Source of the DNA: an uncultured Campylobacteraceae bacterium
Lineage (GTDB): Bacteria > Campylobacterota > Campylobacteria > Campylobacterales > JALSKU01
Assembly: GCA_964566455.1 (NCBI GenBank)
Contig: CAZMKH010000001.1
Span: forward strand, 2,469 to 35,291
Direction of reading: 5' to 3'
Length of the DNA: 32,823 nt
Made by a program: the position numbers and the translations under genes. The notes under the pieces were generated by a model that saw nothing but the letters and a program-made list of their open reading frames with translations, was not told where the DNA came from and ran no database searches. This document shows, piece by piece, positions 13,213-27,878 of this stretch (position 1 is the stretch's first letter; each line of letters begins with the position of its first letter).

Positions 13213-14175
13213 TCAAAAGCTTTTTGAGATATTTATACCTATCTGTTTTCTGTCATATTGATACATCAGTATATTTGATGAATTTGTAGTATATGAAGCA
13301 TTAAGTGAAAGTGTTGCTTTTATCTTATTTATAAAATATGATAAACTTCCGCTGTAGCTTCTTGATATGTCTCTTCTGCTTTTTCCATAAGCCTGCTCAA
13401 CTCCTTTATAATTTACTCTGCTTGCGCTGAAGCCGACATTGGCATTTAGATTTTGACTAAATGCCTTATAATAATTTAGGTTAACTCCTCTGGCATAGTT
13501 TCCATAAGTTTCGGTTTTTGAACTCTCTTCGCCATAATACCCGCCGATACTGACAAAACTAGAGCGGTCCAAAAGTATTCTGCTTGACGGTGAAAAGGTT
13601 ATACTGTGACTTTTTCTGTCGCTGTTTTTATAATATTTTTTACTTTGATAACTTACTGAAAGATTGAATGATACTTTATTGTTGTATCGATAATTTACCT
13701 GTGGGGCTGCACCGATACTTGTCGAGTAGTATTTTTTATCATGTCCGATGATAAGGATATTTCCTATCAACGGCAACGAGTAGGTAAATCTTCCTTTTTT
13801 TGTTATCAGGGCAGTTGAGAGTGATATGTTTTTACTATCAAGTGCATCAAGTTTGTTATAGTCTATTACATTTATATCAAAGCTGTTTTGCCAGGCAAGT
13901 TTATTTAGCTGCTTGATATAGTTAAAGCCAAAAGAGTATCTAAGCGCAGTATCCGAACTCTCTTTTGCATCCTGCGAAAGAGTGAAAGGAAGATTGTACA
14001 TTAGTATGGTATCTGTATCAGGTCCTGCATTTGCATTGCTGTCGTACATCCAACCTGCTGCAACTCTTATGCTCCAAAGCTTTGGAATACCCTTGTCTAT
14101 TGTAGCCAAAAACATATCTATATTGTCTCCGACTTTCTTGGGAGGGTGGGAAGCTTTTACTATAATTTTTTTCAA
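13213..14175 (-). pseudogene. Outer-membrane beta-barrel-like ORF lacking a signal peptide, possibly a 5-prime truncated remnant (DUF560/Slam-barrel-like; family uncertain)
   Basis: The 320-aa ORF has alternating amphipathic beta-strand-like segments rich in Y/S/N/G and a C-terminal ...INISKSF (terminal Phe typical of OMPs). The only start at the ORF head is TTG, and an in-frame stop lies four codons upstream (14188-14190). Neither the N-terminus MKKIIVKASHPPKK nor any internal Met is followed by a signal peptide, so the protein could not be exported as written. Confidence 0.45.
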
Positions 14176-14302: not shown

Positions 14303-14311
14303 TGTTATAAT
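14303..14311 (+). promoter_or_regulatory. Candidate extended -10 promoter (TGtTATAAT) for the alginate-type operon
   Basis: TGTTATAAT at 14303-14311 lies 31 nt upstream of the lyase ATG, inside a 167-bp very AT-rich gap. The RBS AAGGGTG lies just before the ATG. The call rests on sequence pattern only. Confidence 0.35.
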
Positions 14312-14342
14312 ATTCCTAAAAAATGGTTATTAAAAGGGTGAA

Positions 14343-15053
14343 ATGAAACGACTTGTATTTTTTATTTTTGCATCACTTCTTTTTGCTCATGATGCGCCGT
14401 ATTCCATCGAAAAATTTCAAGATATCTTAAATGCATCAAAGTTGCAGGCTCCAAAAAGCAGCTTTGATGCACTCTACAGTGTAAAATATGGTAATTTTGC
14501 AGACTATTCCAATAAGTACTTTTATCTGCAAGATGGCAAATATATGGTCTTTTTTATGTGTGGCAAAAAGCACAGAAGTGAGCTTCGTATGAAAAAGGAG
14601 TGGAAAACAGATACAAAAACAAGTATCAGCCTTCATGCAAGAGTAAAGCTTTTTCCTCTTAATGCCAAAAGAGAGTTTACATTTTTACAAATCCATGCTG
14701 ACTCCAATCTTAAAAACTCCATCAACAAACCGCTTCTTAGGATAGTATGGAAAAAAACATATCATCATCTCAAGTCTCATATATGGGCAGTCATAAGAAT
14801 AAGCGCAGACATCAATGAGCAAAATTATGAAAAAATTGACCTGGGGTTGATGCCGGATAAATTTTTTGATGTAAAAATAACCGTAAAAGATAACAAATTA
14901 AGTATAAAAGTCGATAATGATTATAAAGTTTCCGGCTTTGATATTTCATACTGGAAAAGATATTACAACTACTTTAAAGCCGGAGTTTATCTGCAGGATG
15001 ACGGCTGTGCAAAAGTATTGTTTGACAAACTTGATACAAAAGGATTGAAGTGA
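14343..15053 (+). CDS. Secreted polysaccharide lyase family 7 (alginate lyase) protein
   Basis: The 236-aa ORF has a signal peptide MKRLVFFIFASLLFA. The three PL7 signature blocks are present: RSELRM (14574-14591), FLQIH (QIH at 14688-14696) and YFKAGVYLQ (14970-). Confidence 0.85.
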   Translation: MKRLVFFIFASLLFAHDAPYSIEKFQDILNASKLQAPKSSFDALYSVKYGNFADYSNKYFYLQDGKYMVFFMCGKKHRSELRMKKEWKTDTKTSISLHARVKLFPLNAKREFTFLQIHADSNLKNSINKPLLRIVWKKTYHHLKSHIWAVIRISADINEQNYEKIDLGLMPDKFFDVKITVKDNKLSIKVDNDYKVSGFDISYWKRYYNYFKAGVYLQDDGCAKVLFDKLDTKGLK

Positions 15054-16363
15054 ATATTTCCGTAGTAGGATTGGGATATGTGGGTGCTGTTTGCTCTGCT
15101 TGTTTTGCAAACGAAGGACACAATGTCACAGGGATGGATATAGACAGAGTAAAAGTTGATATGATAAATGACGGCAAAGCTCCCATAATTGAAAAAGATT
15201 TGGATAAATATATATCAAAAAATGTAAAAGAAAATAGACTTAGAGCCACAACCGACTTAAAAGAAGCTGTTGATAACAGCGATATCACCATCATATCGGT
15301 AGGCACTCCTTCAAAGCCAAACGGTGATATTGATTTAACGTATATAAAAGAAGCTGCAAAAGCTATAGGAGAAAAAATAAAACAAAAAGATGCTTTTCAC
15401 ATAGTTTCGATGCGAAGCACAGTCCTTCCAGGAACCGGCAAAAATGTTGTCATTCCTGTTATAGAAGAAGTTTCAGGCAAAAAAGAAGGTATAGATTTTG
15501 GATATGTTTCAAATCCGGAATTTTTACGTGAAAGTTCTGCAATATATGACTTTTACAATCCTCCCAAAACCGTCGTAGGAACCGATGATGAAAAAAGTGC
15601 ATCAGTTTTTAAAGAGCTTTACACTTTTTTAAAAGCTCCATATTTTGAAACAGATATTGAAGTAGCTGAAATGATAAAATATGCGGACAATTCATGGCAT
15701 GCGGTAAAAGTTACATTTGCCAACGAGATTGGCTTGATATGTAAAAGAGTTGGCATTGATGCTCACAAGGTTATGGATATTTTCTGCGCGGATAGGAAGC
15801 TTAACATTTCATCATACTATTTAAAACCGGGGTTTGCTTTTGGCGGGTCATGCCTTCCAAAAGATGTAAAAGCCATAACCTACAAAGCAAAATCATTGGA
15901 TGAAAACACACAACTTCTAAATTCTTTAATACCAAGCAACCGATATCAAATCGAGAGAGTTTTTTATCATTTTATAAAGCCTCTTAAAAAAAGAAAGGTA
16001 GGGATTTTGGGGATTAGCTTCAAAGCAGATACAGATGACTTGAGAGAATCTCCCGTTTTAGAACTTACTGAAATCCTCATAGGAAAAGGATATGAAGTCA
16101 AAATATATGACAAAAATATATCGCTCGCCAAAGAAAAAGGAGCCAATAAACTTTTACTTGAAAATGAGCTTCCCCATATCAATGCAAGATTGGAAAATGA
16201 TTTAAACCGGGTTGTTGACAATAGCGAAATACTAATCATTGGAAACAGTGATGACAAATTTAAATATATTGACTTTTTGTCATATAAAGATAAAACTTTT
16301 ATAGACTTAATGCGTATCAATTCCGATATATCACATGATAATTATACAGGGATAGCATGGTAG
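15050..16363 (+). CDS. algD: GDP-mannose 6-dehydrogenase
   Basis: The 437-aa ORF has (M)NISVVGLGYVGAVCSACFANEGHNVTGMDI (Rossmann fold, close to the AlgD N-terminus as recalled), the catalytic-Cys region FGGSCLPKDV, and GISFKADTDDLRESP. The GTG start overlaps the lyase TGA stop (GTGA). Confidence 0.9.
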   Translation: MNISVVGLGYVGAVCSACFANEGHNVTGMDIDRVKVDMINDGKAPIIEKDLDKYISKNVKENRLRATTDLKEAVDNSDITIISVGTPSKPNGDIDLTYIKEAAKAIGEKIKQKDAFHIVSMRSTVLPGTGKNVVIPVIEEVSGKKEGIDFGYVSNPEFLRESSAIYDFYNPPKTVVGTDDEKSASVFKELYTFLKAPYFETDIEVAEMIKYADNSWHAVKVTFANEIGLICKRVGIDAHKVMDIFCADRKLNISSYYLKPGFAFGGSCLPKDVKAITYKAKSLDENTQLLNSLIPSNRYQIERVFYHFIKPLKKRKVGILGISFKADTDDLRESPVLELTEILIGKGYEVKIYDKNISLAKEKGANKLLLENELPHINARLENDLNRVVDNSEILIIGNSDDKFKYIDFLSYKDKTFIDLMRINSDISHDNYTGIAW

Positions 16364-17880
16364 ACTTTTGGTTTTTTCTTATATACACCTTGGCTTTGAC
16401 AGCAATGGGATTTTCTCTGCCTTCAATATATTTTGACCCTTATCAAAAAAAGCTTATATTTGTGCTTGGACTGGTTGGGATATGGAGGTACAGCTGGTTT
16501 TTTATAAATATTATCAGAGCTACAATCTACAAAAAGGTTGTTTTTAAAAAAATAAGAAAAATAGAGGAGTCCCACAAAGACGAAATAGACCCTGAACATG
16601 TTTTTTTACTTCTTACGACATTTCGTATCGGTACGGATGTTACCATCAGAGTTTACAGGGCTGTTATCGAAGAAGCGATCAGATGCGGGTATAATGTAAC
16701 GATTATTGCTTCCATTGTTGAAATGTCAGAAGAGAGGTTGATTAGAAAAATTTTTTTACAGCATAAGCCGCCGCCTCGCGTTCGCCTTACTATCTCAAGG
16801 ATAAAAGGTACAGGAAAAAGAGACGGTCTTTCCATAGGATTTAGAGTTGTAGCCAATGCTTCCGGTATTAATTTGGAAAAAAGTGTTGTTGCCGTTATAG
16901 ACGGAGACTCTATACTTGGAGAGGACTTGATAAGAAAATGCTCAAGACTTTTTGGTATGAATGAAAATCTTGGAGCACTTACAACTGACGAGGATGCTAT
17001 CTTAGCCGGAGATGACTTTCCTCACAATGTATATAGACAATGGTATAAACTCCGTTTCGCTCAGCGTAATATCTCTATGAGTTCTATGGCTCTTTCCAAT
17101 CGTGTTTTAACACTTACCGGAAGAATGTCTATGATAAGAGCAAATATAGTTGCTTCAAAAGATTTTATTGAAACTGTACAAAATGATCATGTAAATCACC
17201 CTATACTCGGTAAGTTTAAGTTTTTAACAGGTGATGACAAGTCAAGTTGGTTTGATGTGGTCAAGGAGGGATGGGATATGCTCTATATCCCCGATGTAGT
17301 TGTTTATACAGTTGAAGAAATCCCTGACAAAAACTATTTTAAAGGCTCCATTGCTTTAATGCACAGATGGTTTGGTAATCAATACAGAACCAACACAAGA
17401 GCACTTAAGCTTTCTCCAAAGACATTTAACTGGTATCCGTGGTATGGACTGATAGATCAAAGAGTAACAATGTGGACCGCTCCTTATGGGCTTTTTATCG
17501 CATTGTTTGGCTCTTTAAACTGGGGTATAGAAATCTTTTATGCATATATATGGTGGGTACTTTTCAGCAGACTCATCATGACATATGCATACAGGCTTTC
17601 AAGAGAAGAGATATTGCCCTCATGGCCGTTTTTCTTATATTACAATCAAATAGTCGGCTCTTTTGTTAAAATATATATTTGGAACCATTTGTACAAACAG
17701 TCATGGACAAGACAGAAAACAAAACTTAAAACAGAAGACAGATTTATTCAATGGTATAGGAAAACTGCCGGCGATACATTAACAATAGTTAAACTTTTAT
17801 TTTTTATTATTGTTGTAAATGTCTTAGTCCAAAACATTACATTTGATGAAATATGGTCATTTTTTGATATTATCATCTAA
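16357..17880 (+). CDS. alg8: Alginate polymerase glycosyltransferase (GT2), Alg8 homologue
   Basis: The 507-aa ORF has blocks that match P. aeruginosa Alg8 as I recall it. These are GIWRYSW, DPEHVFLLLTTFRI, VVAVIDGDSIL, WYKLRFAQRNISMSSMALSNRVLTLTGRMS, FLTGDDKSSWF and LYYNQIVGSFVKIYIWNHLYKQSWTRQKTKL. It overlaps the algD stop by 7 nt. Confidence 0.92.
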   Translation: MVDFWFFLIYTLALTAMGFSLPSIYFDPYQKKLIFVLGLVGIWRYSWFFINIIRATIYKKVVFKKIRKIEESHKDEIDPEHVFLLLTTFRIGTDVTIRVYRAVIEEAIRCGYNVTIIASIVEMSEERLIRKIFLQHKPPPRVRLTISRIKGTGKRDGLSIGFRVVANASGINLEKSVVAVIDGDSILGEDLIRKCSRLFGMNENLGALTTDEDAILAGDDFPHNVYRQWYKLRFAQRNISMSSMALSNRVLTLTGRMSMIRANIVASKDFIETVQNDHVNHPILGKFKFLTGDDKSSWFDVVKEGWDMLYIPDVVVYTVEEIPDKNYFKGSIALMHRWFGNQYRTNTRALKLSPKTFNWYPWYGLIDQRVTMWTAPYGLFIALFGSLNWGIEIFYAYIWWVLFSRLIMTYAYRLSREEILPSWPFFLYYNQIVGSFVKIYIWNHLYKQSWTRQKTKLKTEDRFIQWYRKTAGDTLTIVKLLFFIIVVNVLVQNITFDEIWSFFDIII

Positions 17881-17886
17881 AAAGGA

Positions 17887-19035
17887 ATGAGTATGCCTGA
17901 AAAAATAGAACCTATCGACAATACTGAAGAAAAATTTTCTCCACAGATTGTACATGAAGCAGAAATAACACGCCAAAATGCCAGATTTAAAATCCCTGCA
18001 AAGATGGAAATAGATGGAAAAATATACAAACTAAGAGATTGGTCTTTGACAGGATGTTCTGTCATTGACTTGCCTGAAGAATATATCAAAAAGCATACAA
18101 CCGCTAAAATGATTTTCAAATTTGACCAGTTTGAAACAATAATCGACAATTTAAAAATAGAGTGCTTATATAAAAAAGAAAATTATATAGGGTGTCGCTT
18201 TACAGACCTTACACCACAACAAATGGCAATACTCAATCAAGTCATAACTGCCTATATAAATGGTGATATCATTACGCAGGATGACATCATAACCGCTGTT
18301 ACCAAAATTCAAATGTATCCTAAAAAGAAAAAAATAGATGAAGTCGAAAAAAAGAAAGCAAAATTGATACTTTTTCTTATTTTTGCAACTCTTGCGATTA
18401 TAATAATATTTTTATCATATATTCTATACAAAAAAGTATTTATTGTAGAGAGTGTCAATGGATATGTTGATAGCAATATAACTACTTTACGTTCACCCTA
18501 TTCCTCTTTTATAAAATTTCAAAAAGATTATAAAACTGATCAAAATATTTCAAATGGTGAAACTGTAGCTGTAGCATATCTTGTTGGAGGAGGCATAAGC
18601 CGTATTGTCTCTCCGGTTGGCGGCAAGATATTTAAGATTTATTCAAAAAACAACGAATTTATCAATACAGGCGAGCCAATATTGTCCATAATTGACTTGA
18701 ATGCAACTCAATATATCCATGCAACATTTTACTCCAAAGAGACCAAAAAAATTAAAACAGGCTATATTGTTAAAATAATTTTTAATTCAAATATCTATTA
18801 CGGAAAAATTGTCAAAGTCCTTTATCCTGAAGATATAAGCATAATAAAAAGCAAACCTAACGGCAATATTTACACTAATCCGAGAAACTTTATCGATGTC
18901 ATCATTATACCGCTGCAAAAAATTGATAAAAAATATATCGGGAGCAGTGTATATGTAAAACTGGATACTTTTATAAACAAACTTGGATTTATCAATGAGA
19001 AAAATACTAATAATTTCTTTACTGCTGTTTTTTGA
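17887..19035 (+). CDS. alg44: Alginate co-polymerase with PilZ (c-di-GMP receptor), TM helix and periplasmic membrane-fusion-like domain, Alg44 homologue
   Basis: The 382-aa ORF starts HEAEITRQNARFKIPA (RxxxR) and has DWSLTG (D/NxSxxG), which together form a complete PilZ signature. A TM segment LILFLIFATLAIIIIFLSYILY follows. The C-terminus has the lipoyl/HlyD-like VGGKIFKIYSKNNEFINTGEPILSI. The second ATG at 17893 is better spaced from AAGGA. Confidence 0.88.
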   Translation: MSMPEKIEPIDNTEEKFSPQIVHEAEITRQNARFKIPAKMEIDGKIYKLRDWSLTGCSVIDLPEEYIKKHTTAKMIFKFDQFETIIDNLKIECLYKKENYIGCRFTDLTPQQMAILNQVITAYINGDIITQDDIITAVTKIQMYPKKKKIDEVEKKKAKLILFLIFATLAIIIIFLSYILYKKVFIVESVNGYVDSNITTLRSPYSSFIKFQKDYKTDQNISNGETVAVAYLVGGGISRIVSPVGGKIFKIYSKNNEFINTGEPILSIIDLNATQYIHATFYSKETKKIKTGYIVKIIFNSNIYYGKIVKVLYPEDISIIKSKPNGNIYTNPRNFIDVIIIPLQKIDKKYIGSSVYVKLDTFINKLGFINEKNTNNFFTAVF

Positions 19036-21622
19036 TTTTGCTTTTGCAAAAAACAGTTGCTACTCTATCAAAACAGAAGCAGGTTTGTTTACACCCATAT
19101 ATCCTTACAATATATTTTCACAAAGAACATGCAAATTGATAGAACTTCCTTTAAAGTTTTTTGGAAATGAAGCTTTTATAGGATGTTATAAAACAAAAAA
19201 AGAGGTATATAAAAGATATAATTTTTTAAAAAGAGTGGTTTTTCATTTTAAAAATGAAAAAATTGTAAAAATTACTCCTGTGCAATATACAAATTTTATT
19301 ATTTTTCCATATTTTACAAAAAGTACTCAAAAAAAACTAACAAAATACAAAAAAGAGTTTTTATCAAAATTGGATAATTTAACACCGAAAAAACTTGTTA
19401 AAAAAATTCCAAAGTACTTTTACGGAAACGGCATAGAGGTAAAAAATATTGACAGTATATCTTTGCTTCCCATACCTAATATATTTGCTTATTATAAGTA
19501 TTATAAAAAGCATCATTTGTCAAAAAAAATGATAATTTTATATAACGGTATTTATTCACTAAATGATATACACAAAAAATTTCCAAATATAATCAAAAAA
19601 ATATCTAACAAAATATTCTTGCTAAAAGCACCAATATACATCTCAAAAACAGCATCTTTAGTGATAAAAAATTCAAAAGTTCTGCTTGAAAGCAAACCAA
19701 AACCTGTATTTATACTATATCACGGAAATCTTTATATAAACAATTCAAACTTTATAACTTATGATGCAAAAACAAAAAGTTATGCAAAAAGAGAGAAAAT
19801 CAAAGAAGAGGAAATCTTACTGGTAGGCAAACAAAAGCCTAGACCATATTTTTTGGGACTTTCAAACTCTTATACTCTCTTTTTAAATTCAACTTTCAAA
19901 GGGCTTGGTTTTCATGACGGTGTATCAACTTTTGGAATTTCTCTTGCACAGCTTCCTACTTCCATAATGCATGTCTCTAATATTTTAAATTTTTTAAGAG
20001 CAAAAAAACCAAAAGGCACATATGTCGGAAATGAAATATATGATTCTATGATGGGTTTTTACTGTGCAAATGCAAAAAATGTAAATATAGTGGGAAATTA
20101 TATGCATGATAATGTAGTTTACAACATTGACCCGCATGATTATTCAAAAAATATTTTAATTGCAAGAAATCTTTTAAGCAATGCTCGTCATGCTCATGGT
20201 GTTATAATTTCAAGAGGAGTTACAAAGACATTCATAGCACAAAATATATCTATCAAGAACCACTCCAACGGCATTATGCTTGATAGAATGTCTCTTGACA
20301 ACACGATTTATGACAACCTTACTTTTGCCAACGGGTATTCCGGCATATCTTTTCAAGAGAGTGACAATAATATCATAGAAAAAAATATAGCAGCATATAA
20401 CTTAATAGATGGAATTATTCTCAGAAACTCGCTTAATGTACTTGTTAAAAATAATAAAATTTTTAAAAACGGAAAAAACGGTATCGAAATTATGAGTAAA
20501 AATATAGATGATACCATTTATCGTGACTTTAAAAGAGACCCTTATCATAAAGCTGCATCTTGTATAATCACCAAAAATAGTATAAAAGATAATTATTTCA
20601 ACCAAATTACCGTTAAAAACAGGGCTGCTATCAAGTTTTACAATAACTATTTCAATAAAAAAAACATTAATTTATTTGGAGATGATTTATCACTCTTTAC
20701 AGATAAAATTATAAATAATGATTACAACTTTAAATTGTATGGAATAGGAAACAGATTTCACGCAGTAAGTATAGACGAGCTTAAAATAAGAGATACTTTT
20801 TATGATATTTTTTCTGATTTGTCATACTATAATGATACCGGCGGTTTGAGTTTGGCAGAAATTTACAGGCTCTTAAATATGTATAACCTAGTAAAAAATG
20901 AGTTAAAAAGAGAATCATCAAATCTGGTTGCAAAAGCTCTTGATGCTTATGCTTTTTATCAATTGAAATCAAGCAAAAACAGAAAAAATGTTATTAAATA
21001 TTTGAGTTACATTATCGAATCAGCCGTTATGCAAAATAAAAGTGCCACCCTATCTGTTAGTGAAATAAAATATGTTTTACCGATAAGTAAAAAAAATATT
21101 CAAGAAGCTTTTAAGATGGCAAGAAACCGAATGAAAAAGGGTGAGATTTTTGACAATGAAGATAAAAAAGGAAAGGTTGCCTGTCAATTTTCAAAATTTT
21201 CAAAAAAAGTTATCAAATCATACATAGATATATTTATGTATAAATATAAAAAGAGCAAAGCAAAAGATATTTTAGAGTATTTTAACATTTTAAACAAAGA
21301 CTTTTCGCTGATGCCTCCAAATATTTTCAAAAAAATGCAAGAGATTTACAAAGAAAAAAACAGTCCCAAAATAAGATATTATCATTTTATCAAATACAAA
21401 CTAAACAAAATGAAACAAGACAGACTGTGCAAAAGATATTTGATAAAAAATAAATATTTTCAAAAAGAAGCCAAAGATATACTAAAAAATGATTTACAAA
21501 AAAATTTTTACAGATACAAACCTCTTTTTGAGCATTATCTGTCACTAATAAACAGGCATAGAAACAAAAAACTTAATTTTGAACAAATCCTAAATATTTT
21601 AAATATACAAGGCAGGAAATGA
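18995..21622 (+). CDS. algG: Periplasmic mannuronan C5-epimerase (AlgG-like right-handed beta-helix) with extra N-terminal module and long C-terminal extension
   Basis: The signal peptide is MRKILIISLLLFFDFAFA from the ATG at 18995; the track start at 18983 is TTG. The central region has VYNIDPHDYSKN (DPHD at 20129-20140), HAHGVIISRGV, NGIMLDRMS, SGISFQESDNN and YRDFKRDPY. These parallel the P. aeruginosa AlgG blocks YGIDPHDRS, KHGIIVSREV, GIVLDRNS, DGITLYESSDN and DRDFKLDPF as recalled. Total length is 875 aa, against about 540 for AlgG. Confidence 0.85.
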   Translation: MRKILIISLLLFFDFAFAKNSCYSIKTEAGLFTPIYPYNIFSQRTCKLIELPLKFFGNEAFIGCYKTKKEVYKRYNFLKRVVFHFKNEKIVKITPVQYTNFIIFPYFTKSTQKKLTKYKKEFLSKLDNLTPKKLVKKIPKYFYGNGIEVKNIDSISLLPIPNIFAYYKYYKKHHLSKKMIILYNGIYSLNDIHKKFPNIIKKISNKIFLLKAPIYISKTASLVIKNSKVLLESKPKPVFILYHGNLYINNSNFITYDAKTKSYAKREKIKEEEILLVGKQKPRPYFLGLSNSYTLFLNSTFKGLGFHDGVSTFGISLAQLPTSIMHVSNILNFLRAKKPKGTYVGNEIYDSMMGFYCANAKNVNIVGNYMHDNVVYNIDPHDYSKNILIARNLLSNARHAHGVIISRGVTKTFIAQNISIKNHSNGIMLDRMSLDNTIYDNLTFANGYSGISFQESDNNIIEKNIAAYNLIDGIILRNSLNVLVKNNKIFKNGKNGIEIMSKNIDDTIYRDFKRDPYHKAASCIITKNSIKDNYFNQITVKNRAAIKFYNNYFNKKNINLFGDDLSLFTDKIINNDYNFKLYGIGNRFHAVSIDELKIRDTFYDIFSDLSYYNDTGGLSLAEIYRLLNMYNLVKNELKRESSNLVAKALDAYAFYQLKSSKNRKNVIKYLSYIIESAVMQNKSATLSVSEIKYVLPISKKNIQEAFKMARNRMKKGEIFDNEDKKGKVACQFSKFSKKVIKSYIDIFMYKYKKSKAKDILEYFNILNKDFSLMPPNIFKKMQEIYKEKNSPKIRYYHFIKYKLNKMKQDRLCKRYLIKNKYFQKEAKDILKNDLQKNFYRYKPLFEHYLSLINRHRNKKLNFEQILNILNIQGRK

Positions 21623-23274
21623 AAAAGGTATTACTGATTTTTTTACTGACAACTTCAGTCCTGTTTGCCAAAACATGTATTATTGCATACAGTGCGATAA
21701 AAATACCTCTTTTTCAAAAAGAAAAATTTCAAACCATATTTAAAGATAAAGCAATAATTGAAAAACAAAAAAAATATGCAGTCTTAAAACTTGGACCTTT
21801 TGATTTTATAAACAACACCAAAACAATGCTCACAAAAGTAAAAAAAGATTATAAAGATGCTTTCATTGTCAACTGCCAAAACAGTTTTCACAAAAAGAAG
21901 AAAAAGATACAATACAATAATTTATCAATGCTGACTCCATGTCGAAAAAATTGTAAAAATTTTTCTTGCAAAGAGTGCAACAACAAGCATTATTCATGGG
22001 AAATCAACAAGTCAACCATAAAAAAGTCTGTCAAGTTAAATATCAAGCCACTTATTGCATTTCCCAAAAAAACAAACTCCTATAAAGAAAACAACGAAAC
22101 AAATAATACCCGTTTAACATCATTTATCCGTTTTTATCTAAATGGAAATTTTACATATATACTTGGTCAACAGCCGATTAATTCAAATCGTCTCAGAGGA
22201 GATTATGAAAATACAAAAGTTGGTTTGCAGTATGGGTATTTTACCGATAACTGGAAATTTTATACTGATGACAGGATAATTTTATACAGAAAACATAAAA
22301 ACCATACAACAAACAGTTCAATTGATTTGGATATCAAAGAGCTTTATTTGCAAAGTTACGGACTTTTTGATAATAGATTAAATGTCTTGATAGGAAGAAA
22401 ACAACTTTTTGATGCAAGGTCGTGGTGGATCGACAAACCAATGGATGTGGCAGGTATTTTTAATCTCCATGACCTTTACCGATATGAAATCTACGCTGGA
22501 GGCAGACTGAACAATTCTACACTTTTTTCAGATGATACATCTCTTGAAACAAATCTAAAACATACAAAATTTATAATGGCACATTTTGATGATGAGTGGT
22601 ATTATCTCAATCATGCAAGCTTTTTTGCTCTTAAAGAAAAAACTGACCTTCATTCAAACAAAAAAGATATGCATTGGTTTGGAGCACGTCTTTTTGGTGA
22701 TAAATATATAGATGAAAAAGACAAAATAAGATACTGGGCCGATACAGGAGTCAACAACGGAGAATATAATAATCAATCAAAAAGAGGTTTTGCCTATGAC
22801 ATAGGGGCAATTTATAAAAAAGATGTAAATTACTCTTTTGGTTTGTCATTTGCTTATGGCTCAAAAGAATACAAACAACCTATATTTGCCGATAACAAAT
22901 CAAATTTTTTACAAAATGATATAAAATTTAGATATTACGGTGAATTTCTAGACCCTGAACTTACAAATATCTCCATTTTGTCTATATATGGCACATATAA
23001 ACCATCCACTGAAAAAACATATATTTTAGCCCTGCACAATTACAGACAAAATTCATTATCAGATATGCTACGTACCACAAGCTATATTATACCTACGAAC
23101 AATATACAAAAAAATATAGGCCAGGAGATAGATTTGCTATACCAGTATCAGCTATCTTTACGATATAAATATAAAATTACTTTTTCATATTTTAAAGGCG
23201 GCAGTGCCTTCAATCAAGTAGCTGAAAAAAAGGATGGATTGTATGCGAAATTCAATTTTACTTACTATTGGTAG
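21619..23274 (+). CDS. algE: Alginate-export outer-membrane beta-barrel (AlgE-like) with N-terminal extra module
   Basis: The 551-aa ORF has a signal peptide MKKVLLIFLLTTSVLFA. Barrel blocks parallel AlgE as recalled: KELYLQSYG...IGRKQLFDARSWWID (AlgE REFWVDYAG...FGRQRLRED..W.D), NFLQNDIKFRYYGEF..LTN (AlgE NFTGTRSRVHRFGEAF..LSN) and IGQEIDLLYQY (AlgE IGQELDLVV). The C-terminus FNFTYYW is aromatic. The ATGA junction overlaps the upstream stop. Confidence 0.82.
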   Translation: MKKVLLIFLLTTSVLFAKTCIIAYSAIKIPLFQKEKFQTIFKDKAIIEKQKKYAVLKLGPFDFINNTKTMLTKVKKDYKDAFIVNCQNSFHKKKKKIQYNNLSMLTPCRKNCKNFSCKECNNKHYSWEINKSTIKKSVKLNIKPLIAFPKKTNSYKENNETNNTRLTSFIRFYLNGNFTYILGQQPINSNRLRGDYENTKVGLQYGYFTDNWKFYTDDRIILYRKHKNHTTNSSIDLDIKELYLQSYGLFDNRLNVLIGRKQLFDARSWWIDKPMDVAGIFNLHDLYRYEIYAGGRLNNSTLFSDDTSLETNLKHTKFIMAHFDDEWYYLNHASFFALKEKTDLHSNKKDMHWFGARLFGDKYIDEKDKIRYWADTGVNNGEYNNQSKRGFAYDIGAIYKKDVNYSFGLSFAYGSKEYKQPIFADNKSNFLQNDIKFRYYGEFLDPELTNISILSIYGTYKPSTEKTYILALHNYRQNSLSDMLRTTSYIIPTNNIQKNIGQEIDLLYQYQLSLRYKYKITFSYFKGGSAFNQVAEKKDGLYAKFNFTYYW

Positions 23275-25519
23275 TATTTTTTTATTATTTGGCTGTGCCA
23301 ATCTCGATGTTGCCAAAAAAGCCTATCAAAAAGGTGACTACAATACCTCCATTTCCATATATAACCAATGGGCAAAAAGAGGTTTTCCAAAGGCCCAGCT
23401 AAAACTGGCCGAGATGGCGAACAGTGGAGTTATCAAAGCTTCACCCAAGTATATCATAAGCAATGCATTGTCAGCTTACAAAAAAGGATATAAAAAAGCA
23501 GCCAATATTATTTTTTACAATTATTACAAAATCGGAAACTTTAAAAAAGCAGGCTACTGGTTTGAAAAAGTAATTTTTGATACCATGGATTTGAAAACCT
23601 GTGAGGCATATTTGGCTTTTTTACAAACTCATATCGATAATTTTAAGTTACAGCAGCGATATTTAAAATCCATAGAAACATATGCGATAAAATCCAATAA
23701 TCCAAAAATACTTTATGCCCTGGGAAAATTTTATGAAGAGGGTATATTTATAAATTTTCAAAAAAGTAAAAAATATTATAAGCTCTCTTATCAAAGCAGT
23801 TTTATGCCTGCAGGCATAAAACTGGGTCTTTTATATATTTACAAATTAAACAAACCCGAAAAAGGTATAGAAATTTTAAAAAAACTTTCCAATCAGGACA
23901 ATGGTACGAGTGCATACAATATTGCATTATATCTCTTAAATCGGATGAATCAAGAGCTACAAAAACTTAACACACCTTGTATATCTTTTAATTTTAAAAC
24001 ACCAAAAGAGTTTTTTGTAAGAAAAATCAAAGCAGAAATTTTTCAAAGAAAATTTCTCAAAAAAAATGTTCTTCCATGGCTTTTGTATGCATACAAAAGA
24101 GGATATATCGCAGGAAAGCTAAAGCTTATCTCTTTGGATACTAAAGCAAAAAATTTTAATAAAAAAAATAACCTCTCAGGTATGAGTCTAAATGAAGCTA
24201 TCAGTTTTCTTGAACAATTAAATCTTTTTAGGGCAAAAATGATTTTAGCAAGTATCTATGAGAATTATCCCAACTTGCATCAATTAACAAGAGCAAAAAT
24301 AATTTACGAAGAGTATGAGAATATAAACAAATTGGATGCCTACTGGCATTTATATCAGTTTTATAAAAGATTTTATCAAAACGGTAAAACAAAAAATTAT
24401 TATCTAAACTATCTTATTTCACATAATTTTGCACCTGCAAAAATAGAAAAAGCATATTTTGATATCTTAAACAAAAAAAATATAGAAAAAAATATGAGTA
24501 TATTAAAATTTTATACTGAACAAAAAAATATCTTAGCTCTTACATATTTAGCTTCCATATATGCCTCAGAAAATAATATAAAAGAAAACAGTCTGGCACT
24601 ACACAAGCTATGCAGGCTGACATCTCCTCTAAATTCATCGCTGGATATGAAAATAGCAAAATTTTATCTCAAAGAAAACAAATTGACAAAAAGTGCTACA
24701 GTATACCAGTACTATGCCAAAGAGTTTCCAAATGCCGCATACTCACTTTCAAAAATCTATAAAACTTTTAATGAATGTAAAAAATATCTATACTGGCTTG
24801 AAACCGCAAAAAACAACGGTCTTAAACAGGCAGAACTTGAGCATGCCAAACTTATTTTAAAAGGTAAAATAGACGGGAATACATCAAAAGCTATCTCAAT
24901 CATAAAACAATATACACTAAATAACGACCCTGTTTCTCTACTGTTTTTGGGCAACATATATAAAAATGGTATAGCAGTCAAATTTGATCCCAAAAAAGCT
25001 GAAAAATACTATAAAAAAGCAATAAAACTGGGATATGACAAAGCGTATATAAATTTGGCCGGATTATATAGAATGTTAAATATCAATGGAGAATATGATA
25101 ATAAAATTTTAAAAATTTATGAAAAGTTAATCGAAAAAACCAATGATGATACTATAAGGCTTGAAATTGCACAGTTTTTATTCAGCAATAAAAAATACAA
25201 AAAAGCTTTAAGATATATCGAACAAAACAGATTGTACCGATATGACAAAGGAAAATATTTGTATTACAAATTAACAGGCAAAAAAATCAACTTTGGGAAA
25301 ATTACAACTACAAGCGATCCAAGATTGATTTTGTTAAATGCAAAATTTTTACAAAACAGGGATAGAAAAAAAGCACTTTATTATGCATTTGTTTCTGCTC
25401 TTTACAATACAAAAGGGAGTAGTGAATTCATTGTGAGACAATTAAAATTTTTCTCTCCAAAAACTGTAAGAAAAATTTATAAACAAGCAAAAGAAGACTT
25501 TAAAAAGGGTAAAAAGTGA
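23243..25519 (+). CDS. algK: Sel1-like/TPR repeat outer-membrane lipoprotein (AlgK-like), enlarged
   Basis: The ATG at 23243 gives MRNSILLTIGSIFLLFGC (lipobox). Many Sel1-type repeats follow, for example AQLKLAEMANSG, LGKFYEEGIFINFQKSKKYYKLS and LGNIYKNGIAVKFDPKKAEKYYKKAIKLGYDKAYINLAGLY. It sits between the porin gene and algA. The AlgK assignment rests on repeat type, lipoprotein signal and operon context, not on a specific motif. Confidence 0.7.
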   Translation: MRNSILLTIGSIFLLFGCANLDVAKKAYQKGDYNTSISIYNQWAKRGFPKAQLKLAEMANSGVIKASPKYIISNALSAYKKGYKKAANIIFYNYYKIGNFKKAGYWFEKVIFDTMDLKTCEAYLAFLQTHIDNFKLQQRYLKSIETYAIKSNNPKILYALGKFYEEGIFINFQKSKKYYKLSYQSSFMPAGIKLGLLYIYKLNKPEKGIEILKKLSNQDNGTSAYNIALYLLNRMNQELQKLNTPCISFNFKTPKEFFVRKIKAEIFQRKFLKKNVLPWLLYAYKRGYIAGKLKLISLDTKAKNFNKKNNLSGMSLNEAISFLEQLNLFRAKMILASIYENYPNLHQLTRAKIIYEEYENINKLDAYWHLYQFYKRFYQNGKTKNYYLNYLISHNFAPAKIEKAYFDILNKKNIEKNMSILKFYTEQKNILALTYLASIYASENNIKENSLALHKLCRLTSPLNSSLDMKIAKFYLKENKLTKSATVYQYYAKEFPNAAYSLSKIYKTFNECKKYLYWLETAKNNGLKQAELEHAKLILKGKIDGNTSKAISIIKQYTLNNDPVSLLFLGNIYKNGIAVKFDPKKAEKYYKKAIKLGYDKAYINLAGLYRMLNINGEYDNKILKIYEKLIEKTNDDTIRLEIAQFLFSNKKYKKALRYIEQNRLYRYDKGKYLYYKLTGKKINFGKITTTSDPRLILLNAKFLQNRDRKKALYYAFVSALYNTKGSSEFIVRQLKFFSPKTVRKIYKQAKEDFKKGKK

Positions 25520-26922
25520 AAAATATTATTTTAAGCGGTGGAAACGGTACAAGACTTTGGCCGGTAAGCAGAGAAAATATGCCAAAACAGTTTCTTAAAA
25601 TGTTTGATGATAAATCTTTATATCAACTTACACTTATACGCAATAAAAACTATTGTGAAGAAAGTATTGTAGTTACAAATGCAAAAAACTTTTTTATTGC
25701 TCAGGACCAGACAGAAGAGTTGGAAGTAGACAAAAAGCCTTTTTTTATAGTTGAGCCGATAGGTAGAAATACAGCTGCAGCTATAGCATTTGGTGCATTT
25801 GCTTCAACTAAAGATGAAATACTTTTCGTAACTCCGTCAGACCATTTAATCAAAAGTGACAAAAACTACGAAGATATGATTTATTTTGGGAAAGAGGCCG
25901 CAAAGGACGGCTATTTGATTACTTTTGGTATAACACCGACAAAACCTGAAACAGGTTATGGATACATAAAGACAAAAACCGGTAAGAAAATAATGGATGT
26001 TTTATCATTTTGTGAAAAACCGTCTTTGGAAAAAGCAAAAAAATATATTGAATTAAATCAAAACAATATGAAAGAAAAATATCTGTGGAACAGTGGAATG
26101 TTTATGTTTAAAGCAGGGATTTATCTTGATGAACTAAAAAAACATTCACCTGATATTTATGAAATGTCAAAAGCGGCATTTGACAATGCGATAAAAAATG
26201 ATTTTTTACGTTTAAAAACAGATGACATGACAAATATACCTGATATTAGTGTAGATTATGCAGTTATGGAAAAAAGCAGAAAAATAAAACTGGTTAAAGC
26301 AGATATCAACTGGAATGATGTGGGAAGCTTTGATTCACTTGATGAAGTATTTGAAAAAGATGAAAACAATAACACTAAAAATAAAAATTTAACTACTTAC
26401 AAATCACATAACAACTTTGTTTTCGGTCGCTACAAAACAATAGCTTTAAATGAAGTAAATAATTTAATTGTCATAGATACTCCATCTGCACTTCTTGTCA
26501 GTAAAAAAGGCAAATCTCAACAAATCAAAGATATAGTAAAAATCCTCAAAGAGAAAAACCCAGAATCAGTTAAATATGGAAGAACTGTTTACAGACCATG
26601 GGGGAAGTATACAAACTTACATACCGATAAACGCTTTAAAGTCAAAACCATAGTGGTAAATCCAGGTAAGCGCCTATCTCTTCAAAAACATCTTCATAGA
26701 AGTGAACATTGGGTTGTAGTAAAAGGAGTAGCACTTGTAAGAATTGATGAAAAAGAGTTTTTGTTAAATGTTAACGAATCCACCTACATACCGATAGGCA
26801 TAAAGCATAGACTGTCAAACCTTGGGCATATCCCTTTGGAAATAGTAGAGGTTCAAGTTGGAGAATATTTGGGAGAAGATGATATAATTCGTTTTGAAGA
26901 TGATTTTGAAAGAGTGCCGTGA
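25516..26922 (+). CDS. algA: Bifunctional mannose-1-phosphate guanylyltransferase / mannose-6-phosphate isomerase (type II PMI)
   Basis: The 468-aa ORF has (M)KNIILSGGNGTRLWPVSRENMPKQF, EPIGRNTAAA, PSDH and PETGYGYI in the N-terminal nucleotidyltransferase domain. The C-terminal cupin has QKHLHRSEHWVVVKG and EVQVGEYLGEDDIIRFEDDF. The GTG start overlaps the upstream TGA (GTGA). Confidence 0.9.
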   Translation: MKNIILSGGNGTRLWPVSRENMPKQFLKMFDDKSLYQLTLIRNKNYCEESIVVTNAKNFFIAQDQTEELEVDKKPFFIVEPIGRNTAAAIAFGAFASTKDEILFVTPSDHLIKSDKNYEDMIYFGKEAAKDGYLITFGITPTKPETGYGYIKTKTGKKIMDVLSFCEKPSLEKAKKYIELNQNNMKEKYLWNSGMFMFKAGIYLDELKKHSPDIYEMSKAAFDNAIKNDFLRLKTDDMTNIPDISVDYAVMEKSRKIKLVKADINWNDVGSFDSLDEVFEKDENNNTKNKNLTTYKSHNNFVFGRYKTIALNEVNNLIVIDTPSALLVSKKGKSQQIKDIVKILKEKNPESVKYGRTVYRPWGKYTNLHTDKRFKVKTIVVNPGKRLSLQKHLHRSEHWVVVKGVALVRIDEKEFLLNVNESTYIPIGIKHRLSNLGHIPLEIVEVQVGEYLGEDDIIRFEDDFERVP

Positions 26923-26987
26923 AATTTAAATTGTATAGAAATGTAAGTAATGAGCATAAAAACATATTCATGCCATACTAACCTCTT

Positions 26988-27878
26988 ATGAAAAATAGTA
27001 AAAATCAAAAACTATCATACATTTATGCTCTTAGTGCTGTACTTCTTTGGTCCAGTGTGGCTACAGCTTTTAAGATTGCTCTTAAGTCATTAAGCCCCTT
27101 GGAATTGCTGTTTTATTCTTCTTTAACGGCATTGGTTTTTCTTGCTTCAATGCTTATCATACAAGGAAAAATATATGAAACTTTCAAATATTTTCAAAAG
27201 CATATCACTCTTATAGTGATACTGGGTTTTATAAATCCCTTTATATATTATCTTACACTTTTTAAAGCTTACGACCTGCTGCCGGCCCAGGAAGCTCAAG
27301 CCATTAACTATACCTGGGCATTGATGCTCTCATATCTAAGTGTCATTTTTTTAAAACAGAGGCTTTCAAGATATGATGTTATAGCCGGTTTTATAGCATA
27401 TTTTGGGGTTCTTGTCATTGCTACCAAAGGAGATATAACTTCACTTCATTTTTCAAACAACCTTGGGCTTTTTTTGGCACTTTTGAGCACGATACTTTGG
27501 TCGTTTTACTGGATATTCAATACCAAGATAAAAGCTGATCCTGTTATCTCTTTATTTAGTAATTTTTTAGTGGGAGTGGTTTTTATATCACTATATTTTG
27601 TTTCAACACAAACTTTTCACATGCCGACTTTAAACGGGGTATTATCCACCATATATATAGGTTTGTTTGAAATGGGCATAACTTTCATACTATGGCTCAA
27701 AGCATTGAAATATAGTGAAAATACAAGCAAAACCGCCAATTTGATATTTTTATCACCTATTTTATCTTTGGTTTTTATCCACTATATAGTGGGCGAAACC
27801 ATAGAGACTTCTACCATTGTAGCTCTAGTGTTTATACTTTCCGGACTCTCTTTGCAAAAACTCAAATCTAAAACCTAA
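26988..27878 (+). CDS. DMT superfamily (EamA-like) transporter
   Basis: The 296-aa ORF has about 10 predicted TM segments arranged as two EamA-like halves (for example LWSSVATAFKIALK and LFEMGITFILWLKALKY). The substrate is unknown. Confidence 0.8.
   Translation: MKNSKNQKLSYIYALSAVLLWSSVATAFKIALKSLSPLELLFYSSLTALVFLASMLIIQGKIYETFKYFQKHITLIVILGFINPFIYYLTLFKAYDLLPAQEAQAINYTWALMLSYLSVIFLKQRLSRYDVIAGFIAYFGVLVIATKGDITSLHFSNNLGLFLALLSTILWSFYWIFNTKIKADPVISLFSNFLVGVVFISLYFVSTQTFHMPTLNGVLSTIYIGLFEMGITFILWLKALKYSENTSKTANLIFLSPILSLVFIHYIVGETIETSTIVALVFILSGLSLQKLKSKT

Follow-up and report, generated by a model that had tools for sequence, protein, structure and literature searches.

A probably functional alginate-type exopolysaccharide operon of vent/marine architecture in an uncultured hydrothermal-vent Campylobacterales bacterium

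The 32.8-kb stretch of DNA analysed here (the window; contig CAZMKH010000001.1, all positions counted from its first letter) belongs to a hydrothermal-vent Campylobacterales bacterium, and the ORF listing shows eight consecutive open reading frames (ORFs) on its + strand at 14343-26922, in the order PL7-algD-alg8-alg44-algG-algE-algK-algA. We consider it likely that these genes form a functional synthase-dependent alginate-type exopolysaccharide (EPS) operon with a 'vent/marine' architecture (PL7, D, 8, 44, G, E, K, A), the most likely function of which is to make and export a mannuronate-based polymer without acetylation, under gating by cyclic di-GMP (c-di-GMP). Each family call was checked by at least two routes (profile, sequence or structure comparison), and the placement of the operon's products in their families is far beyond chance. 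The catalytic and signature motifs are all intact, and comparison of the window with two sister loci gave dN/dS values of 0.03-0.12 for every gene, showing strong purifying selection. The eight genes are as follows.

14343-15053, + strand: PL7 alginate lyase, 236 aa (Pfam Alginate_lyase2, E = 2e-33), with the signal peptide MKRLVFFIFASLLFA cut before HD
15050-16363, + strand: AlgD, GDP-mannose 6-dehydrogenase, 437 aa (match to 1mfz, E = 6e-147)
16357-17880, + strand: Alg8, glycosyltransferase family 2 (GT2) mannuronan synthase, 507 aa (Pfam Glyco_tranf_2_3, E = 1e-32)
17887-19035, + strand: Alg44-like co-polymerase, 382 aa, in which a PilZ domain at the N terminus is followed by a single transmembrane helix and a HlyD-like domain in the periplasm
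18995-21622, + strand: AlgG-like mannuronan C5-epimerase, 875 aa, with a signal peptide; alternative TTG start at 18983
21619-23274, + strand: AlgE-like outer-membrane alginate porin, 551 aa, with a signal peptide (Pfam Alginate_exp, 67 bits against a cut-off of 25)
23243-25519, + strand: AlgK-like Sel1/TPR outer-membrane lipoprotein, 758 aa, with an LFGC lipobox; alternative ATG start at 23234
25516-26922, + strand: AlgA, bifunctional mannose-6-phosphate isomerase/GDP-mannose pyrophosphorylase, 468 aa (NCBIfam, Pfam)

An earlier note on this DNA had described the genes as a single translationally coupled unit, and the junctions read from the sequence agree with that description. PL7 and algD overlap by 4 nt in a GTGA, algD and alg8 overlap by 7 nt, and alg8 and alg44 are separated by a 6-nt gap; alg44 and algG overlap by 41 nt if algG begins at the ATG at 18995 (53 nt from the first listed start, the TTG at 18983), algG and algE meet in an ATGA, algE runs 32 nt into algK counted from the ATG at 23243 (41 nt from that at 23234), and algK and algA share a GTGA. 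The gene calls on an identical public scaffold (REYS20-1, SAMN12239312), which to judge from its name probably comes from a hydrothermal-vent deposit metagenome, are 875 aa for algG and 758 aa for algK and correspond to the starts at 18995 and 23243. The identities that the note gave to the eight genes were likewise upheld by profile, sequence and structure comparison, the AlgK-like call being the weakest, as were the permutation of the export genes to G-E-K, seen in the ORF order, and the extra regions in three proteins (AlgG, AlgE and AlgK), seen in models and alignments. Its placement of the host in Campylobacterota is confirmed by the nearest genome, a Campylobacterales vent metagenome-assembled genome (MAG) with a 96% identical Alg8.

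The synthase Alg8 is 44-45% identical to the Alg8 proteins of Azotobacter and of dozens of Pseudomonas species over residues 5-491 (~97% of its length), and 45% identical to P. putida Alg8 over the full length. Its DGD, TGDD and RWFGN motifs are invariant across the family and its relatives carry the JGI name 'glycosyltransferase Alg8'; a PDB sequence search with Alg8 returned no match. The adjoining Alg44 matches Pfam PilZ (E = 1.7e-4) and HlyD_3 (E = 8e-9), has the Alg44 PilZ domain 4rt0 as its best PDB match, and is matched by P. putida Alg44 at E = 3e-15 (tblastn). Both c-di-GMP-binding motifs are present, RxxxR as RQNAR and DxSxxG as DWSLTG, suggesting that Alg44 may bind c-di-GMP and, by analogy with Pseudomonas, gate the synthase.

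The two precursor enzymes are AlgD and AlgA. AlgD is 51% identical to P. putida AlgD, carries the catalytic GGSCLPKD motif and matches the P. aeruginosa GDP-mannose dehydrogenase 1mfz over its full length with 493 bits, as compared to 258 bits for the best UDP-glucose dehydrogenase. The latter identity had been considered, the best NCBIfam equivalog-type matches being AglM and TuaD, and was ruled out by this difference. AlgA reaches 549 bits against the NCBIfam equivalog TIGR01479 (GMP_PMI; cut-off 373) and contains the Pfam domains NTP_transferase and MannoseP_isomer.

The PL7 lyase, predicted to be periplasmic, finds its best PDB match in AlyC3 (7c8g, E = 4e-24). The family blocks looked for, R(S/T)E(L/V)R, Q(I/V)H and YFKAG(V/I)Y, are present as RSELR at residue 78, QIH at 116 and YFKAGVY at 210, and the protein is 60% identical to the PL7 encoded in the operon of Nitratiruptor sp. 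SB155-2. NitAly (BAF69299.1), a PL7 lyase of Nitratiruptor SB155-2 and the probable orthologue, prefers polymannuronate (polyM), with an optimum at 70 °C and pH 6 (PMC6165035, PMC9530828). The PL7 of the SB155-2 operon has both Cys80 and Cys232. Inoue and colleagues are reported to have traced the heat stability of NitAly to these two cysteines. PL7 probably takes the role of AlgL in the operon described here.

The AlgG-like protein scores 167 bits against NCBIfam epimerase_AlgG (E = 8e-49), under the equivalog cut-off of 700, and thus represents a divergent subfamily, only ~26% identical to Pseudomonas AlgG. Its AlphaFold2 (AF2) model (predicted local distance difference test, pLDDT, 91.5) is composed of an N-terminal alpha/beta domain (aa 20-105, nt 19052-19309) followed by a helical linker, a beta-helix (aa 178-586, nt 19526-20752) and a C-terminal all-alpha domain of ~270 aa (aa 600-875, nt 20792-21619). 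The sequence matches 4nk6 at E = 1e-42, and Foldseek places the model on 4ozy with E = 1e-25, a template-modelling (TM) score of 0.92 and a root-mean-square deviation of 2.1 Å, the nearest structural relatives of the fold all being mannuronan epimerases. The DPHD motif lies at residue 379, and its four residues, D379, P380, H381 and D382, hardly vary among 48 family members, long AlgG homologues that align end to end. In the C-terminal domain, the first ~100 aa match Sel1/TPR proteins (E = 6e-6) and the remainder gave no profile match; the whole-model Foldseek search was dominated by the beta-helix and assigned no fold to this domain. Pfam searches at lax thresholds with the N- and C-terminal regions of AlgG and with the N-terminal halves of AlgE and AlgK returned nothing usable. 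The fusion of a Sel1-like helical domain to AlgG, as read from the profile match, is possibly a new detail.

With such a divergent AlgG, it may be asked if the product is polymannuronate alone, with the AlgG-like protein acting as a periplasmic scaffold, chaperone or lyase and having no epimerase activity. Its score far under the cut-off and low identity to Pseudomonas AlgG would fit this explanation, the large non-catalytic additions suggest a structural role, and the probable lyase orthologue NitAly prefers polyM. Against this, DPHD and the block surrounding it are conserved, the beta-helix superposes closely on AlgG, and the Pseudomonas polymer is M-rich too. We therefore regard a pure polymannuronate machine as unlikely and retain the AlgG-like protein as a putative epimerase.

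The export proteins resemble their Pseudomonas counterparts to differing degrees. The AF2 model of the AlgE-like porin (pLDDT 76) contains a barrel of ~18 strands (aa 167-551, nt 22117-23271), and its top 17 Foldseek matches are all P. aeruginosa AlgE (E ~1e-19, TM 0.76-0.79), seven orders of magnitude better than OprD/Occ, the next porin family being OccD at 4e-12. The barrel is preceded by a domain with a SPOR-like beta-alpha-beta-beta-alpha-beta topology (aa 19-85, nt 21673-21873; pLDDT ~80) and a disordered Cys-rich linker. The SPOR idea comes from this predicted topology and from Pfam matches to family members, since SPOR (PF05036) matches the N-domains of 4/10 family porins (best E = 1.2e-6); a PDB profile search with the porin N-domain gave no SPOR match and only spurious ones to LidA. 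As modelled, a SPOR-like domain on an AlgE porin is possibly also a new detail. The AlgK-like protein matches Pfam Sel1 with 32.5 bits and NCBIfam AlgK_TPR_lipo with 39 bits against a cut-off of 700 (E = 4e-10), and the Cys of its GCAN is invariant in the family. It is ~280 aa longer than Pseudomonas AlgK and helical throughout. Alignment with Pseudomonas AlgK (hhalign) gave 93.5% probability and E = 2e-7 over a Sel1 block of only 113 columns, and the PDB AlgK structure 3e4b was matched at E = 0.01, with generic Sel1 proteins ranking above it. On these similarities we treat the lipoprotein as one that may work like AlgK.

Taken in order, these products would make up the following pathway. AlgA, together with a phosphomannomutase encoded elsewhere, would provide GDP-mannose, which AlgD would oxidize to GDP-mannuronate, as judged from the homology of these enzymes. 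Alg8 would polymerise beta-1,4-mannuronan at the inner membrane upon binding of c-di-GMP to the PilZ domain of Alg44, if gating operates as in Pseudomonas, and the periplasmic HlyD-like domain of Alg44 would extend toward the export apparatus. In the periplasm, the beta-helix of AlgG would turn some mannuronate (M) into guluronate (G), and the polymer would exit via the AlgE-type porin, modelled with 18 strands and presumably capped by the long AlgK-like lipoprotein. Stray periplasmic polymer would be removed by PL7 as it is by AlgL in Pseudomonas, a role that we propose because of the polyM preference reported for NitAly. Since AlgI, AlgJ, AlgF and AlgX were not found, a product without acetylation is expected. 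We speculate that what AlgX does as a scaffold in Pseudomonas is probably done here by lineage-specific additions, namely the Sel1-like domain of AlgG, the extra repeats of AlgK and the SPOR-like, putatively peptidoglycan-binding, module of the porin, and it is conceivable that these additions also anchor the pore to the cell wall.

The earlier note had reported that canonical alginate genes are missing, which agrees with our searches. None of the P. putida queries AlgX, AlgL (PL5) and AlgI gave a tblastn match, whether to the 32.8-kb window or to any of 14 related loci, in a search in which the AlgD, Alg8, Alg44, AlgG and AlgE queries all matched the window. For AlgJ and AlgF no sequence search was made, yet no unassigned ORF is left in the window, and every large ORF there has an assignment other than AlgX. 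The same note had called the operon complete, which is unproven with AlgX missing and with algC and any diguanylate cyclase outside the window.

Several points weigh against a functional alginate operon as set out above. AlgX is absent from the window, yet in P. aeruginosa AlgX is needed for AlgK stability, and formation of the AlgKX complex is required for alginate production (PMC9734138). Neither algC nor a diguanylate cyclase gene lies within the window, and the PilZ match of Alg44 is weak, its 22.3 bits falling just below the Pfam cut-off of 22.5. The similarity of the AlgK-like protein to AlgK appears to be mainly a generic Sel1 similarity, making this the weakest of the eight calls. For the window porin itself the SPOR score is sub-threshold (E = 0.13, 13 bits against a cut-off of 21), and the roles suggested for the SPOR-like and Sel1-like domains derive only from fold and profile matches. 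Finally, NitAly is probably, but not certainly, the PL7 of the SB155-2 operon, and we found no paper reporting a polymer from any carrier of this architecture.

The absence of AlgX can also be read in another way. In a pull-down with P. aeruginosa AlgK, AlgG was not recovered, and how AlgG enters the secretion complex is an open question (PMC9734138). We tentatively suggest, as a possibility that we hold with some doubt, that operons with the order D-8-44-G-E-K encode an AlgX-independent machine, in which AlgG would be tied to the export scaffold by its Sel1-like domain and the porin tethered to peptidoglycan by its SPOR-like module, and that the product would be a non-acetylated, probably heat-tolerant alginate of chemolithoautotrophs from two phyla (Campylobacterota and Aquificota). 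If this is true, these operons offer a natural handle on how AlgG joins the complex.

Beyond pure polymannuronate, it might be argued that the Alg-like chassis makes another acidic polysaccharide, with a different backbone or linkage, and that 'alginate' is an annotation carried over by homology. No product is known, the porin and lipoprotein are very divergent, and Alg8, which falls in a clade apart from Pseudomonas and Azotobacter, shares only 45% identity with characterised Alg8. However, the precursor enzymes are specific to the route from GDP-mannose to GDP-mannuronate, the operon has a dedicated lyase of an alginate-specific family whose probable orthologue NitAly cleaves polyM, and the closest fold relatives of the epimerase are without exception mannuronan epimerases. 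Hence, we find a different polysaccharide improbable.

We also considered, and rejected as very improbable, that the cluster is a relic, silent or in decay, or an unexpressed island of recent acquisition. The G+C content is 26-30% across alg44, algG, algE and algK (17887-25519), whereas PL7, algD and alg8 have 34-36% and the flanks 35.8%; the drop could reflect composition bias or foreign origin. No regulator gene is found within the window. The low G+C of alg44-algK, however, tracks the K/N/I-rich composition of the periplasmic proteins encoded there, the reading frames are all intact and overlapping, and dN/dS is low throughout. Operon synteny is preserved in the sister genomes, and the flanks carry ordinary chromosomal and housekeeping genes, with no mobility genes among them. 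The least probable explanation, a polysaccharide-utilisation locus for alginate uptake and degradation, takes its appeal from the PL7 lyase as first gene and from the fact that PL7 lyases and Alginate_exp-type porins are known in alginate-degrading marine bacteria as well, and was rejected because the locus encodes a synthase, a co-polymerase and both precursor enzymes, shows no oligo-alginate lyase, DEH reductase or importer in profile searches, and comes from a deep-sea vent, where brown-algal alginate is unexpected as a substrate.

To our knowledge, alginate production has been experimentally established only in Pseudomonas and Azotobacter. As in P. aeruginosa and A. vinelandii, the window encodes orthologous AlgD (51%), Alg8 (45%) and AlgA, an Alg44 with PilZ domain, transmembrane helix and MFP-type periplasmic domain, an AlgG beta-helix with DPHD and, as predicted from the genes, an 18-strand AlgE-type porin with an adjoining TPR/Sel1 lipoprotein and a dedicated periplasmic lyase. 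In contrast to the order algD-8-44-K-E-G-X-L-I-J-F-A of those genera, the export genes here read G-E-K instead of K-E-G, AlgX and the AlgI/J/F acetylation machinery are missing, and PL7 stands in place of the PL5 lyase AlgL. The proteins differ as well, AlgG being extended by the Sel1-like C-terminal domain of ~270 aa and an N-terminal domain of ~85 aa, AlgE by the N-terminal SPOR-like domain and Cys-rich linker, and AlgK by ~280 aa.

The earlier note had suggested a streamlined, independently organised machine, and a framing of the operon as novel is overstated. In their survey of 1733 genomes for synthase-dependent EPS operons, Bundalovic-Torma et al. (2020, PLoS Comput Biol) recorded "atypical alginate operons" for "deep sea dwelling bacteria" (PMC7112194). 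The same D-8-44-G-E-K arrangement is listed there for Nitratiruptor sp. SB155-2, as AlgD-Alg8-Alg44-AlgG (2658 bp)-AlgE-AlgK (2289 bp) and with AlgA close by (Table S3 and S5(iii) Fig), and for Thermovibrio ammonificans, as D-8-44-G-E plus A with no recognised AlgK (Table S3) (PMC7112194). The operon type was thus already catalogued in 2020, and the window adds one more well-preserved, fully coupled example together with domain detail; the domain anatomy (a Sel1-like tail on AlgG, a SPOR-like head on the porin) and the cross-phylum breadth may be new. By the note's own standard its claim would fall if the operon turned out to be well characterised in this lineage, and this applies only by half: the type is catalogued, but it lacks experimental characterisation. 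Our literature search found no paper pairing alg8/alg44 or alginate with vent taxa.

The SB155-2 locus (L085) is a close parallel. It shares the core order algD-alg8-alg44-algG-algE-algK, a long AlgG (885 aa, 875 here) and a long AlgK (762 aa, 758 here), a translationally coupled PL7 gene, which lies at AP009178.1 179560-180291, encodes 243 aa and overlaps the end of algK, and the lack of detected algX, algL, algI, algJ and algF. The seven proteins compared are 34-64% identical and align near full length, with AlgG 38% identical over residues 9-875 and AlgK 36% over 20-754. The two loci differ in that PL7 comes first and algA last in the window, both inside the coupled unit, whereas in SB155-2 PL7 follows algK and algA lies upstream, separated from algD by AAA_2, FHA-kinase-WD40 and PP2C genes. 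In addition, AlgE has 551 aa here and 756 aa in SB155-2, and the host is another, uncultured Campylobacterales lineage with an Alg8 only 57% identical. A possible regulatory module sits in the algA-algD interval of SB155-2 (L085:477-6019), where the genes encode an AAA_2 ATPase, a protein of 1007 aa combining FHA, Ser-Thr kinase and WD40 domains, and a PP2C phosphatase. A possible second EPS module follows PL7 (L085:17904-22658), with products that are, in order, 445 aa, 747 aa (a TPR protein) and 294 aa long and with another GT2 behind them.

The locus of T. ammonificans HB-1/Desulfurobacteriaceae (L010) also resembles the window, with the order D-(x)-8-44-G-E, an AlgG-like protein of ~870 aa and a deep-sea vent habitat, and the Desulfurobacteriaceae Alg8 clusters with that of vent Campylobacterota in the neighbour-joining (NJ) tree. 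It differs in belonging to the phylum Aquificota, in having an Alg8 only 46% identical, an extra gene between algD and alg8 and algA on the opposite strand, and in that no PL7 was detected in its fetched flank.

The layout is not unique to this genome and was found in many other lineages. A scan of one genome per GTDB species yielded at least 563 Alg8 relatives, the closest being that of the Campylobacterales vent MAG (96%), followed by one on a contig from a 'Gracilibacteria' bin (95%) and by those of Nautiliaceae MAGs (58-62%). Layouts were obtained by mapping the eight window proteins onto the fetched loci. The order D-8-44-G-E-K with a long AlgG occurs in Nautiliaceae (A-PL7-D-8-44-G-E-K), in another Campylobacterales MAG, in Methylomarinum and in Desulfurobacteriaceae (Aquificota), and locus L081 reads D-8-44-G-E-K-A-PL7. 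A long AlgG is also present in the cultured Caminibacter mediatlanticus, C. pacificus, Nitratiruptor sp. SB155-2 and Nitrosophilus labii. PL7 lies inside the operon in the window and in five fetched loci (L003, L004, L006, L081 and L085). Four Alteromonadales loci (L009, L011, L013 and L014; Pseudoalteromonas/Alteromonadaceae) have the permuted order alg44-algG-algE-algK-…-algD-x-alg8, with the synthase gene last. In the midpoint-rooted Alg8 NJ tree, which carries no support values, the G-E-K class stands apart from the Pseudomonas/Azotobacter clade and from an alphaproteobacterial/Bdellovibrio-like clade.

Two further observations concern these relatives. The contig binned as 'Candidatus Gracilibacteria' (JALUWO010000225.1) carries the same operon and is probably mis-binned, because its proteins are 84-95% identical to those of the window and of the Campylobacterales MAG. 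A third class of loci (L012, L015-L025 and L036-L042) has the order alg8-alg44-x-algG, often with algD, and most of its members have no AlgE or AlgK detectable with the window queries; the hosts are Alphaproteobacteria, Rickettsiales, Micavibrio and Pseudobdellovibrionaceae, with predatory and obligately host-associated lineages among them.

If this minimal eight-gene operon works in vent chemolithoautotrophs, its polymer would be widespread as a biofilm material where marine settings are hot and rich in metals, and a polyanionic gel could there aid attachment and bind metals. AlgX and the acetylation machinery would then be dispensable for secretion, and the operon would provide a compact, possibly thermostable gene set for non-acetylated alginate. 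The Sel1-like domain fused to AlgG bears on the recruitment of AlgG to the secretion complex, which is open in Pseudomonas (PMC9734138).

Sequences around the operon offer the following candidate element upstream of PL7.

14303-14311, + strand: candidate extended -10 element TGtTATAAT, 32 nt 5' of the first start codon, read from the sequence

It may act as the operon promoter, and an AAGGG ribosome-binding site lies at 14334-14338. The promoter consensus scan was uninformative (103 sites observed, 74 expected), as was the terminator scan, because the DNA is AT-rich; within that limit no terminator-like site was found 3' of algA. The scan did mark as terminator-like a perfect 12-bp hairpin inside algK, CAGTTTTATGCC TGCA GGCATAAAACTG at 23797-23824 (+), followed by a T-rich run. 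An EamA-family transporter gene (26923-27878, + strand, 65 nt after algA) may be co-transcribed with the operon; the identical public scaffold has it as a neighbour too, and in other lineages it does not belong to the operon.

The upstream flank contains fabF, fabG, gpmI, mraY, murD, a ClC channel gene, ygjP, ppk2, trxC, an NlpC/P60 endopeptidase gene, nhaA and a SlipAM-like barrel gene, and the downstream flank EamA, dUTPase, cysZ-like, M20 peptidase and rimK-like genes. The SlipAM-like (surface lipoprotein assembly modifier) gene, encoding an outer-membrane beta-barrel at 13213-14175 (- strand), is divergent from the operon and shares with it a 167-nt intergenic region. The product of the NlpC/P60 gene (10704-12011, + strand) has 435 aa and joins an NlpC/P60 stabilising N-domain to SH3b1, SH3b2 and an NlpC/P60 catalytic domain; it has no NCBIfam match and is probably a peptidoglycan endopeptidase.

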